This document shows positions 133-5,682 of a stretch of DNA of 5,682 nucleotides, in pieces. Origin of the DNA: a virus; the IMG/VR virus record IMGVR_UViG_3300045988_008026, positions 1-5,682 of that record. One strand, written 5' to 3'. The first letter of the stretch is position 1. Each line of letters starts with the position of its first letter. The position numbers and the translations under genes were made by a program. Under the pieces are notes generated by a model. That model worked only from the letters and a program-made list of their open reading frames with translations. It was not told the origin of the DNA and made no database searches.

Positions 133-240
133 ATGATCACTTTGAAAGACGTAAAGGGTATCTTTAACCAGCTGCGCAAAATCCTTGCCATGCTGGATAA
201 GATTTACCACGCTCTGAATCTGGATAAGGAGGAAAAGTAA
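133..240 (+). CDS. Hypothetical 35-aa small protein (MITLKDVKGIFNQLRKILAMLDKIYHALNLDKEEK), predicted amphipathic helix. This is the internal-start version of track ORF 28..240.
   Basis: ATG at 133 follows the SD-like GAGGTG (122..127). The stop TAA (238..240) overlaps the next ATG as TAATG, which suggests translational coupling. The upstream part of the track ORF (28..132) lies in GC-palindrome-rich leader and has no RBS. Confidence 0.35.
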   Translation: MITLKDVKGIFNQLRKILAMLDKIYHALNLDKEEK

Positions 241-359
241 TGGCACACAGAATGACGGTCAACCCGAAAAAGGACAAAAAAGTGTTCACGAACACCGCGA
301 AGAAAACGAAGAAGATCAACGTCAACCCGAAGCCGTCGCGCGGCGGCATCCGACTGTAA
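240..359 (+). CDS. Small, highly basic DNA-binding/packaging protein (phiX174 J-like or gokushovirus ORF8-like), 39 aa: MAHRMTVNPKKDKKVFTNTAKKTKKINVNPKPSRGGIRL
   Basis: Hand translation from ATG 240 to TAA 357..359. A strong SD, AAGGAGG (226..232), lies 7 nt upstream. The protein has 9 Lys and 3 Arg against 1 Asp. It sits at the head of the VP5-VP3-VP1 module. It is absent from the ORF track only because it is short. Confidence 0.6.
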   Translation: MAHRMTVNPKKDKKVFTNTAKKTKKINVNPKPSRGGIRL

Positions 360-371
360 AGGAGCAGCACT

Positions 372-635
372 ATGGAATTTCAGGTCTACGCAATCAAGGA
401 CGAACTTGCCGGAACTTTCGGGAATTTGATGGTGGTCAACGAAAAGGTAACCGAACGAACCTTCAGATGGATAGCACAGGAGATGGAAAAGGCAGACTGC
501 GAGGATAAGCGAGTTTACCTCCTGGGAAGCTACGACAACGAAACCGGACTGATCAGACCGGAGCAGCTGCCGCGTCTGATCTACAATCTCGAGCTGATGA
601 AAAAGGAGCAAACGAATGGGAGCCAGAATCTTTAA
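372..635 (+). CDS. VP5: Gokushovirus VP5-like nonstructural protein (functional analogue of phiX174 gpC), 87 aa
   Basis: SD AAGGAG (359..364) precedes ATG 372. The N-terminal pattern MEFQVYAIKDELAGTF...VVNEKVTERTFRW...YLLGSYDNETGLI matches the remembered VP5 signature (x-V-Y-x-x-x-D-x-x-A..F..., A.R.F, L.LG.FD...G). Its position just upstream of VP3 is typical. Confidence 0.75.
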   Translation: MEFQVYAIKDELAGTFGNLMVVNEKVTERTFRWIAQEMEKADCEDKRVYLLGSYDNETGLIRPEQLPRLIYNLELMKKEQTNGSQNL

Positions 636-1113
636 GCCCTACGAAGACGAAAAACCGCCTGCACTGCCGAACGAACCGGGAAACCAGTATGAACCGGAGT
701 ACAAAGAGCGCTATGATGACCGCGGTCAGCCATACCTTGAGAAGGTCGGCGAGGTAGACACCTACGAAAAAATCCAGAGCTACAAGGACGAATGCGACGT
801 CATGGCAATCCTGAGCCGGTACGCTGCGGGAGACGAGAGCGTACTAGCAAAACCGGGCTGGTACATCGACACCAGCAAGCTGCCGAAAACCTACACGGAG
901 TACATGAACCTGATGAACGAGAAGCGAGAAGAATTTAACCAGCTGCCGCTCTCCATCCGTCAGGCGTTCGGGATGAACTTCGAAAGCTGGATGGCAACGG
1001 CGGGTGAAAAAGAGTGGCTGGACAAAATGGGCATCAAAATTCAACAAAATGCACAAGAAAAGGAAGCTGCAGCAACCGAAACCATTGTGCAGGAAGGAGA
1101 AAATAAAGAATGA
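616..1113 (+). CDS. VP3: Internal scaffolding protein VP3, 165 aa
   Basis: SD AAGGAG (602..607) precedes ATG 616. The ORF overlaps the end of VP5 by 20 nt, and its stop overlaps the VP1 start as ATGA (1110..1113). It is acidic and carries the YEKIQSYKDECDVMAILSRYAAGD block typical of gokushovirus VP3. Gene order VP5-VP3-VP1 is conserved. Confidence 0.8.
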   Translation: MGARIFKPYEDEKPPALPNEPGNQYEPEYKERYDDRGQPYLEKVGEVDTYEKIQSYKDECDVMAILSRYAAGDESVLAKPGWYIDTSKLPKTYTEYMNLMNEKREEFNQLPLSIRQAFGMNFESWMATAGEKEWLDKMGIKIQQNAQEKEAAATETIVQEGENKE

Positions 1114-2741
1114 ACCGCAATGCTGAACAACACTATTCTCAGGTGCCTCATGCAAATGTTGCGCGCGCACGTTTCAAGCGGGACTATTCTCTGCTCACCA
1201 CAATAAACGAAGGCGATCTCGTCCCGATCTACTGTGACGAGATGTTGCCGGCCGATACGGCGAAGATCGACCTTAACGCTCTGATGCGTATGAGCACTCC
1301 GCTGTATCCTGTTATGGATAACTGTTATTGTGACTTTTACTTCTTCTTCGTACCATCGCGGCTGCTCTGGGAGCACTTCGAAAACCTGATGGGGCAAAAC
1401 GACTCTACTTTCTGGGCAGAGCCCACGGAGTACACGACTCCGAAAACGACTGCACCGTCTGGCGGCTGGAACGTGGGAACACTGGCAGACTACTTCGGCA
1501 TTCCGACCGGCGTAGCAAACCTTCATGTCAACTCGCTGCCGTTCCGAGCATATGCCAAAATCTGGAACGAATGGTTCCGGGACGAAAATTTGCAGCAGCC
1601 TGTCACGATGAGCAAGACGGATGCAACGACCGAAGGAAGCAACACCGGCACGAACCTCACAGACGCGGAAGCGGGCGGTCTGCCGCTGAAAGTCTGTAAA
1701 TACAAGGACTACTTCACCAGCTGCCTACCGAGTCCGCAGAAAGGACAGGCGGTCACGCTGCCGATGAACGCAAATGCAAAGCTCAGAGTATTCAAAGATC
1801 AGGAACTTACGCAAGTAATCGACGGAACCGGAGCAAAATGGAAAGACATATGGACATGGAACAACGAACCGGAAGGAATAACCAACAAGAAAAACGGAAC
1901 GCAAATCACTTTAACACAAGTAGGTTCTGGATTAGGAACAGAAACGGATGGATGGATAGGAACAGACCTAAGCGACGTAGCAGCCACGACAATCAATGAA
2001 CTCCGTCAAGCGATCGCAGTGCAACACATCCTGGAACGCGATGCCAGAACCGGCACCAGGTACAAAGAATACCTTCAGGGAGCATGGGGGGTAACGAGTC
2101 CCGATGCACGTCTTGACCGGTCGGAGTACATCGGCGGCTACAGACTGCCTATCAACATCAATCAGGTCATCCAGACGTCGGCGACCGACACGACGAGTCC
2201 GCAGGGCAACACAGCAGCGTTCTCCATGACCACGATGAGCCAGAACATGGCTACCTACTCGGCAACAGAACATGGCTTTATCCTCGGTCTGGCAGCTGTG
2301 CGAGTTGACCACAGCTATCAGCAGGGACTGTCTCGTATGTGGACGCGCAGCACACGCTTTTCCTATTATGATCCGATGCTCGCAAACCTGGGCGAGCAAG
2401 CTGTGCTCAACCAGGAAATCTATGCACAGGGTAAGGCAGTGGACGAAGAGGTCTTTGGCTATCAGGAAGCCTGGGCCGATTACAGATACCGCACCAACAT
2501 GATCACCGGCGAAATGCGCAGCAACTACGCACAAACCTTGGACGCGTGGCACTATGCAGACAAATACACGGAGCTGCCGAAGCTCTCCAGCGACTGGATT
2601 AAAGAGGGCAGGCAGAACATCGACCGCACGATCGCGGTAGAAAGCCAAAACAGCCGTCAATTTATCTGCAACTTCTACTTCGACCAGACCTGGACGCGAG
2701 CCATGCCGATCTACAGCCTGCCGGGCCTCGATACGATCTAA
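1110..2741 (+). CDS. VP1: Major capsid protein VP1 (Microviridae F-type capsid), 543 aa
   Basis: SD GGAAGGAGA (1092..1100) precedes the start. Hallmark blocks are present: DLVPIYCDEMLPADT, TPLYPVMDN...DFYFFFVPSRLLW, LPFRAYAKIWNEWFRDENLQ, INELRQAIAVQHILERDARTGTRYKEYLQGAWGV.SPDARLDRSEYIGG. Confidence 0.97.
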   Translation: MNRNAEQHYSQVPHANVARARFKRDYSLLTTINEGDLVPIYCDEMLPADTAKIDLNALMRMSTPLYPVMDNCYCDFYFFFVPSRLLWEHFENLMGQNDSTFWAEPTEYTTPKTTAPSGGWNVGTLADYFGIPTGVANLHVNSLPFRAYAKIWNEWFRDENLQQPVTMSKTDATTEGSNTGTNLTDAEAGGLPLKVCKYKDYFTSCLPSPQKGQAVTLPMNANAKLRVFKDQELTQVIDGTGAKWKDIWTWNNEPEGITNKKNGTQITLTQVGSGLGTETDGWIGTDLSDVAATTINELRQAIAVQHILERDARTGTRYKEYLQGAWGVTSPDARLDRSEYIGGYRLPININQVIQTSATDTTSPQGNTAAFSMTTMSQNMATYSATEHGFILGLAAVRVDHSYQQGLSRMWTRSTRFSYYDPMLANLGEQAVLNQEIYAQGKAVDEEVFGYQEAWADYRYRTNMITGEMRSNYAQTLDAWHYADKYTELPKLSSDWIKEGRQNIDRTIAVESQNSRQFICNFYFDQTWTRAMPIYSLPGLDTI

Positions 2742-2753
2742 GGGGGTGCAGCA

Positions 2754-3683
2754 ATGTCACTCACCTTAATGGGTCTGATCAAAGGCGGTCTGACACTGGC
2801 AAGCACGTTATCCAGCATCTACAGCAGCATCAAAGGCAGCACTTCGAGCGCACGACAGCAAGGCACTATGCAAAACAGCGTCCAGAGCGGCACGACAACG
2901 GGGACGACCGCACAGGATACTACAAGCACAGGCGGCAGCACTCAGACCGGCAACACCGGAGCACTGGGAAATCTGTTGTCAACAGCAATCGGCACACCGA
3001 CCGGGAACAACGCCGGAGCAGCCGCAGACTTTAACGCCGGACAAGTGCAGACAGCCAACAATCTGCAAAACGGTATGTGGAGCCTGGGCAACGTCATCAA
3101 CCTGGGCAGTATGCTGGCATCCAACGCGATGAGTGCAGCAAGCCAAAGCAGCGCAATGAGGTACAACTCGAAAGAGGCAAAAGCTCAAAGAGACTGGCAA
3201 GAGCGTATGAGCAGCACCAGCTATCAGAGAGGGGTAAAAGACCTCAAAGCAGCAGGGCTCAATCCGGTACTGGCAGCATACAACGGCTTCGGAGCACAGA
3301 CGCCGTCGGGCGGTTACGGCAGTCTGGGCGGGGGTCAGACCTTCGGTCATACTCAGGCAATGGCAATACCGACAGCAAAAAATGCGACCATGCAAGCCAT
3401 GTACGATTATGGCAACAACACAGCCCAAATCGTGGAAAACTATCAAAACGCCATCAACAGCGCAAAGCAATCATCGGACTACTGGACAGCCGAACACCTT
3501 GAGCAGATGCAGCAGCAGACCGTAAGCAGCAGCGCTCAGACAGTGGGTCAGCTGGCCGAAGCGGGTAGGAGCAGCAACGCTCAGACCTCGAGCACCAGAG
3601 AGACCAGCGACAGCAAACAGACCAACGTAGCCGGTGAACTGTCCGGTGAATGGACAAACAAAAAAGACAATCGCAGAAGATAG
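2754..3683 (+). CDS. VP2: Minor capsid / DNA pilot protein VP2, 309 aa
   Basis: SD AGGGGG (2741..2746) precedes ATG 2754. The N-terminus is hydrophobic (MSLTLMGLIKGGLTLASTL), followed by a long S/T/G/Q/A-rich low-complexity region. The conserved pilot-protein block ERMSSTSYQRGVKDLKAAGLNPVLAAY is present. The gene lies immediately after VP1. Confidence 0.85.
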   Translation: MSLTLMGLIKGGLTLASTLSSIYSSIKGSTSSARQQGTMQNSVQSGTTTGTTAQDTTSTGGSTQTGNTGALGNLLSTAIGTPTGNNAGAAADFNAGQVQTANNLQNGMWSLGNVINLGSMLASNAMSAASQSSAMRYNSKEAKAQRDWQERMSSTSYQRGVKDLKAAGLNPVLAAYNGFGAQTPSGGYGSLGGGQTFGHTQAMAIPTAKNATMQAMYDYGNNTAQIVENYQNAINSAKQSSDYWTAEHLEQMQQQTVSSSAQTVGQLAEAGRSSNAQTSSTRETSDSKQTNVAGELSGEWTNKKDNRRR

Positions 3684-3712
3684 TTGACAAAAACAGAAAA
3701 GAGGTGTATATT
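3684..3712 (+). promoter_or_regulatory. Sigma70-type promoter: TTGACA (3684..3689), 17-nt spacer, TATATT (3707..3712)
   Basis: The -35 matches 6/6. The -10 matches 5/6, keeping A2 and T6. Spacing is the optimal 17 nt. It starts 1 nt after the VP2 stop and about 40 nt upstream of the RHH ORF. Confidence 0.55.
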
Positions 3713-3753
3713 ATGAGTGTACCAATCGCACACTTAGCTACAGGAGGCTAACC

Positions 3754-3966
3754 ATGAGAACACAGATCACAAAACGATTCAACGTCAATCTGACTAAGGC
3801 CGAAGAAGACGCACTCAAAAACCTGACAGAAGAGTATGCAAACCGAAACTGGAAAGCAAACACATCTGACATCATCCGGGACGCGATAGTATACTACAGC
3901 GAAAAGATGACGGACTATAAAATAGAACCAGAAATAATCAGCGAAGAGGAAGACTTGCCCTTCTAA
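3754..3966 (+). CDS. Ribbon-helix-helix (CopG/Arc/MetJ-like) DNA-binding protein, 70 aa, with an acidic C-terminal tail
   Basis: A perfect SD, AGGAGG (3742..3747), lies 6 nt before ATG 3754. The sequence fits the RHH layout: beta strand KRFNVNLT, helix A KAEEDALKNLTEEY, loop, helix B SDIIRDAIVYYSEK, then the tail EPEIISEEEDLPF. Fold is assigned by pattern only. Confidence 0.7.
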   Translation: MRTQITKRFNVNLTKAEEDALKNLTEEYANRNWKANTSDIIRDAIVYYSEKMTDYKIEPEIISEEEDLPF

Positions 3967-3972
3967 GAAACG

Positions 3973-3998
3973 ATTTTGCCGGGGAGACCCGGCCAAAT
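3973..3998 (+). other. GC-rich hairpin with a GAGA tetraloop, 12 nt after the RHH stop codon
   Basis: GCCGGG (3978..3983) pairs with CCCGGC (3988..3993) around loop GAGA. Flanking ATTTT/AAAT can extend the stem if one C is bulged. No U-run follows directly, so it is not a classical terminator. Confidence 0.4.
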
Positions 3999-4046
3999 CT
4001 GCAACATTTATCCATAGGTTTTTTTGAGAAAGAACTAAATTTTGTG

Positions 4047-4091
4047 TCAATGGGCCCCTATAACATCAAGAGGGTTATAGGGGCCCATTGA
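4047..4091. repeat. Perfect 18-bp inverted repeat with a 9-nt loop (ATCAAGAGG), in the RHH-Rep intergenic region
   Basis: TCAATGGGCCCCTATAAC (4047..4064) is the exact reverse complement of GTTATAGGGGCCCATTGA (4074..4091), verified base by base. It ends 21 nt before the Rep ATG. Confidence 0.95.
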
Positions 4092-4112
4092 GGAAAGGCG
4101 CAGCGAAACTAT

Positions 4113-5264
4113 ATGTCATGCACGAGACCGCTCGTCAGAATACCGACAAGCGACGGAGATTTCCGCGTAGTAAGCCTGAAAGGATACTTAAACCACAGCG
4201 GAAAGAACCTGGAATTTATCGCGGATAAAGAGCGTCAAGATCTAAACGAGAAAAAAATCAAAGAGCTGCTGAAAGCTCAAGAAGCGCAGCTGCTACCGTG
4301 CGGACAATGTCCGGGATGCAAAATGGCAGCAGCATCCAGCTGGGCAAACCGTATGGAGCTAGAGCTGCCATACCATCAAAACGCATGGTTCATCACGTTT
4401 ACATACGATGACGATAATGTGCCATACCGGATGACATGGGACGAAGGGACCGGCGAAGTACTAGTAGAAAATTACAGCCTACGGTATGAGGATATGCAAA
4501 AGTTCTGGAAACGCCTGAGAAGGTACATGGATTATCACAAGTTGTCAAGGTATGAAACCATCATCGACGAAGACGGAAACGAAACAAGGGTATGCACAAC
4601 AAAATACTTCCAATGTGGTGAATACGGCGGAAAAACACACAGACCACATTATCATGCAATAGTTTACGATATACCGTTCAAAAAAGACGAGTTGAAGATC
4701 TACAAAAAGAAAAACGGCGCTGTATACTACAACGTCGATTGGTTTACCGAACTATGGGGTATGGGCCATGTGGTCATCGCGGCAGCGGAGTGGAAAGCGA
4801 TGGCATACACAGCAAGATACACTACGAAAAAGGTCTACGGAAAGGAAGGAAAAGAATTTTACAAAGAACTGGGAATTTTGCCTGAAAAGTGCAACATGAG
4901 CAAAAGACCAGCAATCGGAGCAAAATATTTTAAAGAACATAGCGCAGAAATCTACAAAAAAGACAAAATACAGCTGAAGAACGGAAAAGTCTGCAAACCT
5001 CCAAGATACTTTGATAAACTATACGATGCACAGTGTCTAAGAAAACCACTCACAGAAAAAGAAGTGGAAGACATTGAGCTAGTAATAGAAAAAGCCGAGT
5101 CCGATGAACTCAAAGCGATAAAAAGAAAACGTCGTAAATTGGCAAACGACGCACTCTTCGCCAAGCTCAAACAGAACAACGGCTTAACCATGCAAGAGTA
5201 TTATAGCAAGGAAGAGCAGAAAATGCAAGACAGGTTTAGGAAGCTGATCCGGGAAGAAATCTAA
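4113..5264 (+). CDS. VP4: Replication initiation protein VP4 (HUH rolling-circle endonuclease), 383 aa
   Basis: Motifs present: Cys cluster LPCGQCPGCK, motif I FITFTYDD, HUH motif II RPHYHAIVY, and catalytic Tyr motif III AYTARYTTKKVY. No good SD lies within 5-10 nt of the ATG. The nearest, GAGGAAAGG (4090..4098), lies 14 nt upstream of the ATG. Confidence 0.95.
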   Translation: MSCTRPLVRIPTSDGDFRVVSLKGYLNHSGKNLEFIADKERQDLNEKKIKELLKAQEAQLLPCGQCPGCKMAAASSWANRMELELPYHQNAWFITFTYDDDNVPYRMTWDEGTGEVLVENYSLRYEDMQKFWKRLRRYMDYHKLSRYETIIDEDGNETRVCTTKYFQCGEYGGKTHRPHYHAIVYDIPFKKDELKIYKKKNGAVYYNVDWFTELWGMGHVVIAAAEWKAMAYTARYTTKKVYGKEGKEFYKELGILPEKCNMSKRPAIGAKYFKEHSAEIYKKDKIQLKNGKVCKPPRYFDKLYDAQCLRKPLTEKEVEDIELVIEKAESDELKAIKRKRRKLANDALFAKLKQNNGLTMQEYYSKEEQKMQDRFRKLIREEI

Positions 5265-5287
5265 AGAACGGCTAAATAAGGGAATGC

Positions 5288-5326
5288 AGACGGCGTGGCT
5301 ACGAGAAGCTACGCCGTCTTCTTCGT
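5288..5326 (+). other. Stem-loop about 25 nt after the Rep stop, followed by a pyrimidine-rich tail. Possibly a weak terminator or attenuator.
   Basis: AGACGGCGT (5288..5296) pairs with ACGCCGTCT (5311..5319). The stem extends by GGCT/AGCT (one G-U pair) around loop ACGAGA, followed by TCTTCGT. Confidence 0.35.
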
Positions 5327-5328
5327 AC

Positions 5329-5347
5329 GGCCCGGGGCGGCCGGGCC
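5329..5347 (+). other. Short all-GC hairpin
   Basis: GGCCCGG (5329..5335) pairs with CCGGGCC (5341..5347) around loop GGCGG. Confidence 0.4.
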
Positions 5348-5376
5348 TAGCAGACGGCCTTAAACTCAAAAAGTGC

Positions 5377-5405
5377 TCGACAAATGTACAATTTAGGTGT
5401 ATAAA
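5377..5405 (+). promoter_or_regulatory. Candidate promoter: TCGACA (5377..5382), 17-nt spacer, TATAAA (5400..5405)
   Basis: Both hexamers match 5/6 with a 17-nt spacer. The architecture and the AGGTGTATA box match the 3684 promoter at the same offset. The -10 lacks the conserved final T, so the call is weaker. Confidence 0.35.
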
Positions 5406-5530: not shown

Positions 5531-5578
5531 AAAAAACGTGAGGTTGACGAAAAGCAGCCTTGCGTTTTTTTTTTTTTT
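5531..5578 (+). terminator. Rho-independent terminator: A6, a 10-bp stem, and T14
   Basis: CGTGAGGTTG (5537..5546) pairs with CAGCCTTGCG (5555..5564), including 3 G-U pairs, around an 8-nt loop. Fourteen consecutive T follow (5565..5578, equal to 2..15). The upstream A6 (5531..5536) can pair with the T tract. Confidence 0.75.
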
Positions 5579-5682
5579 GGTAAAATTGACATGGAGAGCC
5601 GGCGCCAGAAAACGAAAGGAGAAAGCACTGCCTCCGGCGCCGGTGATCTGTGCTTCAACCATTTATACAAATATGGAAAGAA
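5564..5682. repeat. Terminal direct repeat, copy 2 (identical to 1..119)
   Basis: See copy 1. All 119 nt are identical. Confidence 0.92.

Follow-up and report, generated by a model that had tools for sequence, protein, structure and literature searches.

The stretch of DNA analysed here in full (the window, 5,682 nucleotides (nt); IMG/VR virus record IMGVR_UViG_3300045988_008026) is a circular microvirus genome in which the genes for the pilot protein VP2 and the replication initiator Rep (VP4) are separated by an open reading frame (ORF) of 70 amino acids (aa). We lean towards the view that this small gene encodes a ribbon-helix-helix (RHH) protein acting as an autorepressor of early genes at GTGTA boxes that lie over its own promoter, P1, and over a second promoter, P2, so as to limit Rep, with a C-terminal tail that probably contacts host partners of the protein that binds single-stranded DNA (SSB). 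This conserved, predicted DNA-binding gene, unannotated in GenBank, is common to an entire clade of abundant gokushoviruses of the human and animal gut, two promoters of which hold repeated sites to match. These viruses would then regulate their own gene expression instead of leaving it purely constitutive, and the system responsible would be very small: one 70-aa protein and two promoters of ~50 bp. To our knowledge, the canonical gokushovirus gene set includes no transcription factor. Microviruses have been regarded as nearly free of accessory genes, the only ones noted being methyltransferases and lysis enzymes (PMC9239249).

That the 70-aa ORF is a genuine gene is shown by its conservation, its synteny and the purifying selection acting on it. 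A word-indexed protein search returned 63 homologues with 58-90% identity, most of them on contigs of 5.5-5.7 kb, and an exhaustive profile search brought in 36 more distant representative clusters along with one spurious match. The gene order VP2 - 70-aa ORF - Rep was found in every genomic context examined (13 IMG/VR loci, three GenBank genomes and nine metagenomic look-ups), and this synteny extends to members that are just 33-40% identical. Pairwise ratios of non-synonymous to synonymous substitution (dN/dS, Nei-Gojobori) among nine close relatives range from 0.05 to 0.3 for the 70-aa gene, one pair of relatives showing 10 synonymous versus no non-synonymous differences. A first-pass annotation of the window had recognized the ORF between VP2 and Rep and had pointed to syntenic homologues in the VP2-VP4 interval and to purifying selection as a way of checking it; both were found. 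GenBank records KX513873, MG945797 and MG945186 leave the gene unannotated, and the pipeline of the Joint Genome Institute (JGI) labels one family member 'Arc/MetJ-type ribon-helix-helix transcriptional regulator'.

Four public gokushoviruses that lack the RHH gene, namely Dulem viruses 205 and 206 (by DNA, the two closest), bajarodmic virus 893 and MG945136, have only a short gap between VP2 and Rep, and the RHH gene is for this reason regarded as an addition to the canonical layout. Its earlier description as an inserted gene holds relative to these RHH-less gokushoviruses but not in the sense of a recent event, since the gene is an old, syntenic and conserved component of the whole clade, with divergent alleles. 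One of these, in MG945569 (locus L031, 5242-5621), is a very divergent RHH allele of 54 aa that has no tail; it sits between an identical promoter and the conserved spacer that precedes Rep, in flanks ~85-88% identical in DNA and in a genome whose structural genes are ~86% identical, and looks like either an allelic replacement or a case of rapid divergence limited to helix 1 and the C-terminus.

Several lines of evidence, each weak by itself, converge on the conclusion that the protein is very probably an RHH DNA binder. Alignments of the family yield the pattern M-x-x-Q-x-x-K-R-[IF]-N-[IV]-N-L-T, a variable helix, and [NT]-x-S-D-I-I-R-D-A-I-x-x-Y. In the predicted strand, the outward-facing residues R8 and N10 (both invariant) and N12 (nearly invariant) alternate with the hydrophobic F9, V11 and L13, as is expected of the DNA-reading strand of RHH proteins. 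The AlphaFold monomer obtained with the deeper alignment has a predicted local distance difference test (pLDDT) score of 81 overall and ~90 for residues 11-50, and consists of an extended segment (residues 5-13), two helices (15-30 and 37-53) and a disordered region (54-70); the model built on a shallow alignment reached a pLDDT of 59 and gave no Foldseek match. Aligned with CopG by hhalign, the family profile scored an E-value of 2.8e-4 (probability 41%, 40 columns), in register over the strand, helix 1 and helix 2, and gave no match to Arc. The best PDB profile match, TTHA0139 (E 0.25), is aligned from the strand through helix 2. Pfam RHH_1 was matched by 12 of 41 family members (best E 1.1e-4), none at the curated threshold, and the remaining Pfam matches in the family were to CcdA, 56B_RHH or DUF6290. 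Named RHH proteins were among the top Foldseek matches in a viral structure library, none of them significant (rank 2 at E 0.24), and PDB sequence searches with the single protein and with the close-family profile returned nothing meaningful.

Some of these results count against the assignment. No single fold or profile match attains a curated threshold; the window protein itself matches CcdA below threshold (E 0.019) and does not match RHH_1; and Foldseek found no significant match for it in the PDB, where the top hit was the RHH antitoxin ParD2 (E 4.4, template-modelling (TM) scores 0.42/0.54). Structure prediction and profile searches, which the first-pass annotation had named as the way to check the fold, thus gave a strand-helix-helix model and a CopG alignment in register on the one hand and non-significant Foldseek matches on the other. 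The RHH pattern that it had read from the letters, a strand and two helices, agrees with the alternating strand and the two predicted helices.

The promoter noted earlier between VP2 and VP4 (TTGACA-17-TATATT) is present, and is the best promoter-like site on both strands of the window. A match at 11 or more of the 12 consensus positions is expected ~0.07 times per 5.6 kb (both strands, calculated for a uniform base composition); promoter-like sites as a class are not in excess, five having been found and 4.6 being expected from shuffled sequences. All relatives examined keep the hexamers of P1 amid diverging flanks, the -10 being a perfect TATAAT in most of them. Downstream, the 70-aa ORF has the perfect AGGAGG Shine-Dalgarno (SD) sequence that had been attributed to it.

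On the + strand of the window GTGTA occurs only three times (3704, 3717 and 5397), each time in a promoter context. The first occurrence, box A, is part of AGGTGTATA (3702-3710) and overlaps the -10 hexamer of P1; the second begins the palindrome GTGTA-N7-CACAC (GTGTACCAATCGCACAC), a candidate operator spanning about +1 to +15. The motif GGTGTATAWT is found in all RHH-positive loci but one (L022) and in none of the seven RHH-negative loci. Of the 29 RHH-positive loci, 27 also have the palindrome 14 nt after this motif, as does none of the seven RHH-negative microvirus loci. Across relatives, promoter and leader are much better conserved than the protein: TTGACA-N17-TATAAT followed by ATGRGTGTA-N7-YACAC is kept where the RHH proteins share only ~35-45% identity. 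The arms of the palindrome are retained, in several cases as perfect GGTGTA...TACACC, and the 7-nt spacer between them varies freely (ccaatcg, tcaatcg, aaaatcg, agaaaaa, aaaaaaa), a pattern characteristic of sites that a dimeric protein binds and not of a coding sequence or a stable RNA stem. In locus L029 the boxes remain with the promoter despite an additional ORF before the RHH gene. The simplest reading of these sites is that the RHH protein would bind them over the -10 and +1 of both promoters and repress both; repression at P1 we judge to be somewhat more likely than not.

The third GTGTA lies in P2, which is degenerate in the window and in its closest relative (L004). In other relatives (e.g. 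L013:5340-5400 and L005:3950-4010) P2 has the consensus TTGACA-17-TATAAT and three GTGTA boxes exactly 13 bp apart, to which some add a GTGTA-N7-CACAC palindrome. The presence of the boxes in P2 as well makes it probable that the protein would be a genome-wide early-gene repressor, rather than a controller of Rep only. In a terminator scan, the + strand from the RHH stop codon to Rep (3967-4112) was free of terminator-like sites, and a strong intrinsic-terminator-like hairpin downstream of P2 is probably the end of the P1 and P2 transcription unit; this hairpin immediately precedes a TTGACA and the 119-nt overlap of the window's ends. The absence of a terminator in the former interval and the presence of a strong one in the latter make it likely that RHH and Rep are co-transcribed from P1. 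With the RHH gene first at the strongest promoter, no terminator before Rep and a candidate operator overlapping the promoter, autoregulation is a reasonable working model. The earlier proposal of autoregulated Rep expression is in keeping with the gene order, the lack of a terminator and the candidate operator on the promoter, from which we infer the repression itself.

Alternatively, the GTGTA boxes may be promoter or leader features serving host factors or the ribosome, and the protein may do something unrelated to regulation. A mini-ORF of 12 codons (3713-3751, MSVPIAHLATGG), opened by AGGTG-N6-ATG at 3702-3715, stops 2 nt short of the RHH ATG, has GAGGTG as its ribosome-binding site and remains open in relatives over 9-13 codons; AGGTGTATA also precedes the ATG of a 40-aa ORF at 5405, and GAGGTG is also the ribosome-binding site of an ORF at 133. 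The resemblance of AGGTG, inside box A and likewise at P2, to the ribosome-binding sites of these two small ORFs speaks against an operator, as do two properties of the comparison: the RHH-positive loci are related, so that the co-occurrence of gene and boxes is supportive without being independent and is in part a matter of shared descent, and boxes and DNA-reading residues are both invariant, which makes a test of protein-site covariation impossible. We nonetheless consider a purely leader-related function improbable. Conservation of the leader by the mini-ORF was rejected, substitutions falling at codon positions 1 and 2 (P/L/S, A/T/V); this pattern and the variable length indicate that the mini-ORF does not encode a conserved peptide. 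It starts upstream of where P1 transcription is expected to begin, and would be translated from read-through transcripts only. Palindromic arms around a free 7-nt spacer are, moreover, typical of dimer-bound sites, and the 70-aa protein is the sole predicted sequence-specific DNA-binding protein of the genome (Pfam, PHROGs).

Beyond its RHH core, the protein terminates in ...PEIISEEEDLPF followed by the stop codon, and the last residues, EIISEEEDLPF, resemble the tail of Gram-positive SSB proteins. The C-terminal residues are IDISDDDLPF in Gram-positive SsbA and DDDIPF in E. coli SSB, and this tip is a docking site for partner proteins (PMC5531588), of which B. subtilis has at least 12, including PriA, RecQ, RecG, RecJ, RecO, DnaE and Ung (PMC3000357). 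The SSB C-terminal form is present in all its elements, i.e. an acidic run, [IL]-P-F, a location at the extreme C-terminus and a predicted disordered linker, and AlphaFold assigns the tail a pLDDT of ~50 and no secondary structure. The acidic run with [LI]-P-F is kept within the window's own group (one member has EEEDIPF) and recurs in 7 of the 36 distant representatives (NEDLPF, EEDELPF, DEDKLPF, PDDLPF, DDNLPF and, twice, DDDDDLPF), carried by linkers of ~6 to ~60 residues that are mutually dissimilar in sequence. Among the 3,856 stop-terminated reading frames of all loci compared, [LIVM]PF termini are confined to RHH ORFs. No Pfam or PHROGs match to SSB or to an oligonucleotide/oligosaccharide-binding (OB) fold was found, i.e. 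the protein is not itself an SSB, and the tail peptide had no match among PDB sequences. The motif that binds the beta-clamp is QL[SD]LF; the tail was rejected as such a motif as it has no Gln.

Functional mimicry of the SSB tip, as suggested by these likenesses, is a tentative proposal that we rate just short of an even chance. Two observations weaken it: roughly half of the alleles are tail-less, including the 54-aa allele of MG945569 in its ~86% identical backbone, and S. aureus PriA does not bind the isolated SsbA tail peptide (PMC5531588). The existence of tail-less alleles marks the tail as an optional add-on and the DNA-binding core as the constant part. More speculatively, the virus may have fused an SSB docking peptide to a site-specific, duplex-binding RHH domain, such that sites on its own genome near Rep and the candidate origin would mimic the signal of SSB-coated single-stranded DNA (ssDNA) and recruit or sequester (as a decoy) PriA, DnaE, RecQ, RecG or RecJ; this we find rather doubtful. 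In a limited search of the literature we found no non-SSB, site-specific DNA-binding protein with a mimic of the SSB C-terminus.

The model that we favour, in which the RHH fold and dimer, the binding to the boxes, the repression, the co-transcription of Rep and the contact between tail and partner are inferred, would run as follows. The 70-aa protein, a dimeric RHH, would be the first product of an early unit consisting of P1 - RHH - hairpins - Rep - small ORF - terminator. Residues R8, N10 and N12 of its beta-strand would most likely read the GTGTA boxes, with box A over the -10 hexamer and the GTGTA-N7-YACAC palindrome over the expected start site. Occupancy of the boxes would block RNA polymerase and result in negative feedback on the synthesis of both RHH and Rep, and the same boxes in the P2 of relatives, weakly represented in the window, would extend repression to that promoter. 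Through its EEEDLPF-COOH tail, the DNA-bound protein may contact at least one host protein that normally docks on SSB. The SSB-tip-like tail would then possibly be a new route by which a phage connects to, or jams, the interaction hub of host SSB.

The tail, however, is also open to readings in which repression is secondary. The protein might be first a replication adaptor and second, or not at all, a repressor: the RHH domain would tether it to viral duplex ~330 nt upstream of the large hairpin described below, where the tip would recruit PriA or another primosome component, DnaE or a helicase for replication of the replicative form, or it might act as a soluble bivalent decoy against RecJ, ExoI-type nucleases and Ung on viral ssDNA. 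Such roles would suit a tail of SSB-tip form that includes the 'IS' before the acidic run, as in IDISDDDLPF, and that is kept on dissimilar linkers; the gene adjoins Rep and the candidate origin hairpin, and in B. subtilis no fewer than 12 proteins are recruited through the SSB C-terminus (PMC3000357). We regard them as unlikely. Strand, helix 2 and promoter boxes are all retained by the roughly half of the alleles that are tail-less, which points to DNA binding at promoters as the common function; -10 and +1, where a repressor classically binds, are exactly the positions covered by the boxes; and the hairpin exists in gokushoviruses without the RHH gene.

The LPF terminus could also be a proteolysis tag, for instance for ClpXP, that would make the protein a short-lived repressor serving as a timer or as a dosage sensor tracking transcription. 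Unstable RHH proteins, such as antitoxins, are common. An SsbA-derived C-terminal LPF suffices for degradation of GFP by ClpXP in S. mutans UA159, but recognition of LPF is strain-dependent within S. mutans and absent in E. coli (PMC5143411), and the acidic run before LPF, which a degron does not need, is conserved too; a role as degron thus appears improbable to us.

RHH proteins serve elsewhere as immunity repressors, antitoxins and partition adaptors, and the weak similarities of the protein to CcdA and ParD2 could be taken to point in these directions. We consider all three very improbable here. The ORF list, Pfam and PHROGs revealed no integrase, toxin gene or ParA-type ATPase in the genome; the neighbours of the gene are VP2 and Rep. 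No RHH relative was found in 185,579 GTDB species-representative genomes with the pattern used, nor was there a tblastn match (E up to 1) in 72,556 PLSDB plasmids. A scan of GTDB for VP1 yielded two distant loci only, both without the RHH gene. The sole long contig, a 48-kb sequence (L001) that joins a microvirus to ABC-transporter, helix-turn-helix (HTH), DUF5720 and ALP_N genes, was followed as a prophage lead and rejected as a probable assembly chimera, since it holds 5,664 nt of a 5,756-nt viral genome, is thus 92 nt short, and then ends in the Illumina adapter AGATCGGAAGAGCACACGT (L001 6174 and 11838-11856); it provides no evidence of integration. No support was found for the temperate or carrier lifestyle suggested by the first-pass annotation, and the antitoxin and partition roles that it had mentioned belong to the three rated very improbable above. 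A 14.5-kb contig of an Oscillospiraceae metagenome-assembled genome (MAG; L020) carries a gokushovirus-like capsid gene (5688-7349, 49% identity) and no RHH gene, and might be an integrated microvirus.

The Rep protein itself matches Pfam REP_ORF2-G2P (7e-11) and phrog_942 (2e-94) and has the HUH motif HYHAI (4647-4661) and the motif YTARYTTKK. No SD sequence lies 5-12 nt before its ATG (4113), in line with the poor SD ascribed to it earlier. The RHH gene is indeed upstream of Rep but not directly so, as had been thought: a conserved spacer of 146 nt with two hairpins, which folds at z = -6.8, intervenes. The first of these, a short G+C-rich hairpin just 3' of the RHH stop codon, has a compensated version in L013 and was not called by the terminator scan. 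The second is a larger hairpin with compensatory double changes at 12 of 13 pairs (16 distinct sequences), its 5' flank TGTCA and loop core ATCAAG being invariant across the 16. The same hairpin is found in RHH-less gokushoviruses (Microvirus-AZ-2020 and contigs of an Oscillospiraceae and a Gastranaerophilales MAG), and is therefore a general gokushovirus element; an RHH-specific operator at this site was rejected on the same grounds. Rolling-circle nick sites usually take the form of a variable stem with an invariant loop, beside a gene for an HUH Rep. Judged by this form, the hairpin is a candidate for the (+) origin or for another Rep or packaging signal; no Rfam family was detected in the region. 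As far as we could find, the literature holds no mapped gokushovirus origin, and a covarying hairpin with an invariant loop offers a concrete candidate for it. The generality of this hairpin, the tail and the GTGTA boxes in two promoters had all escaped the earlier account of the protein, which was incomplete to that extent.

The arrangement had been likened to the CopG-RepB cassette of rolling-circle plasmids. In pMV158, the gene for CopG shares a transcript with repB, and CopG represses their joint operon (PMC5717011), a control supplemented by the antisense RNAII (PMC4485353). As in that plasmid, a small RHH gene lies upstream of an HUH initiator with which it is probably co-transcribed, a candidate operator overlaps the shared promoter, and the logic would be that of autorepression limiting Rep. 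CopG, however, has 45 aa, against 70 for the window protein with its linker and its SSB-like tail; unlike RepB, Rep is a two-tyrosine microviral VP4 of the REP_ORF2-G2P / phrog_942 family; the candidate boxes lie over -10 and +1 and are repeated in a second promoter; and a conserved hairpin separates the two genes. No equivalent of RNAII was apparent, there being no Rfam match and no minus-strand promoter-like site in 3967-4112 in a simple consensus scan, which may miss weak promoters. What stands of the comparison is thus a functional analogy of layout; homology to plasmids or to RepB, and the antisense RNA, do not.

Arc and Mnt of P22 and omega of pSM19035 are RHH repressors that recognize short repeats present in more than one promoter. 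In style, two-promoter control through short repeated boxes would be closer to these: by analogy, a beta-strand would read short repeats, dimers would sit side by side on the core promoter and a single small protein would serve more than one promoter. The system differs from them in its 5-bp GTGTA unit, 13-bp spacing and N7 palindrome, in residing in a 5.6-kb ssDNA microvirus and in that binding is predicted. Its tail shares with the bacterial SSB tip the extreme C-terminal position, the acidic run, L/I-P-F and a disordered linker before it, and differs in that it follows a predicted RHH domain binding double-stranded DNA, not an OB-fold tetramer, and in that its acidic residues are mostly Glu.

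Among gokushoviruses, the only precedent that we found in the literature for a small DNA-binding ORF before Rep is Microvirus-AZ-2020 (ON111452), which encodes a 68-aa 'putative transcription regulation protein' just upstream of Rep (PMC9584320). Both genomes have a small, predicted two-helix DNA-binding ORF before Rep and the TGTCA/ATCAAG hairpin, but the two proteins are unrelated, that of Microvirus-AZ-2020 having neither the KRININLT strand nor the SDIIRDAI helix nor the LPF tail, and its genome no GTGTA boxes. We found nothing relevant in the literature on RHH proteins in Microviridae. Control of Rep by an RHH protein, known in plasmids, would thus be new in microviruses, and the tail without precedent.

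The window has a terminal redundancy of 119 nt and hence a unit length of ~5,563 nt. It shows 87-89% identity to Human gut gokushovirus SH-CHD10 (KX513873) and to records of Microviridae from pig faeces, and the ORF list, Pfam and PHROGs identified a gokushovirus gene set, the coordinates of which are given in Table 1 together with those of the other features.

Table 1. Features of the window and of loci used for comparison (window coordinates unless a locus is named)
Feature	Coordinates	Strand	Remarks
Assembly overlap closing the circle	1-119 / 5564-5682		119 nt
39-aa basic protein	240-359		
ORF5/VP5-like	372-635		
Scaffold (Chlamy_scaf)	616-1113		
Major capsid	1110-2741		
Pilot protein VP2	2754-3683		
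Promoter P1	3684-3712	+	-35 TTGACA 3684-3689, 17-nt spacer, -10 TATATT 3707-3712; 11/12 consensus
GTGTA box A	3704-3708	+	Overlaps -10
Candidate operator palindrome	3717-3733	.	~+1 to +15 of P1
SD sequence AGGAGG (RHH gene)	3742-3747	+	6 nt before the ATG at 3754
70-aa RHH-like gene	3754-3966	+	Includes stop codon
Predicted DNA-reading beta-strand KRFNVNLT, residues 7-14	3772-3795	+	Invariant columns; AlphaFold extended segment
Predicted helix 1 (15-30), loop NWKANTS, helix 2 (37-53, SDIIRDAIVYY...)	3796-3912	+	AlphaFold, hhalign, Pfam
Tail ISEEEDLPF, residues 62-70	3937-3963	+	Likeness to SSB C-terminal tip
Short G+C-rich hairpin GCCGGG-GAGA-CCCGGC, just 3' of RHH stop	3978-3993	+	No T-run after it
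TGTCA flank and 18-bp perfect hairpin	4045-4091	+	Flank 4045-4049; stem 4047-4064 with 4074-4091; loop ATCAAGAGG (4065-4073)
Same hairpin in RHH-less loci	L017:4550-4620, L019:2280-2350, L020:5300-5370		
Rep (VP4), HUH rolling-circle initiator	4113-5264	+	Weak ribosome-binding site
Degenerate second promoter P2	5377-5405	+	TCGACA-17-TATAAA, with AGGTGTATA (5395-5403)
Intrinsic-terminator-like hairpin	5531-5580	+	Strong; T15 run

Across relatives, the interval between VP2 and Rep is a hotspot of additional small ORFs, among them one of 70 aa 3' of the RHH gene in L028 (L028:1279-1491) and one of 81 aa 5' of it in L029 (L029:698-943); L024 carries a Peptidase_M15 gene elsewhere in its genome (L024:96-479). 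Just 3' of Rep, G+C-rich inverted repeats cluster at 5285-5360 (e.g. GACGGCGTGGCTACGAGAAGCTACGCCGTC; GGCCCGGGGCGGCCGGGCC), for which a complementary-strand origin or a terminator are possibilities. The 40-aa ORF that follows P2 (5405-5527, HCNGACEKCPCH...C) is rich in Cys and might be a small zinc-binding protein; it is kept in few relatives only (82-85% in L001 and L002, 64% in L009).

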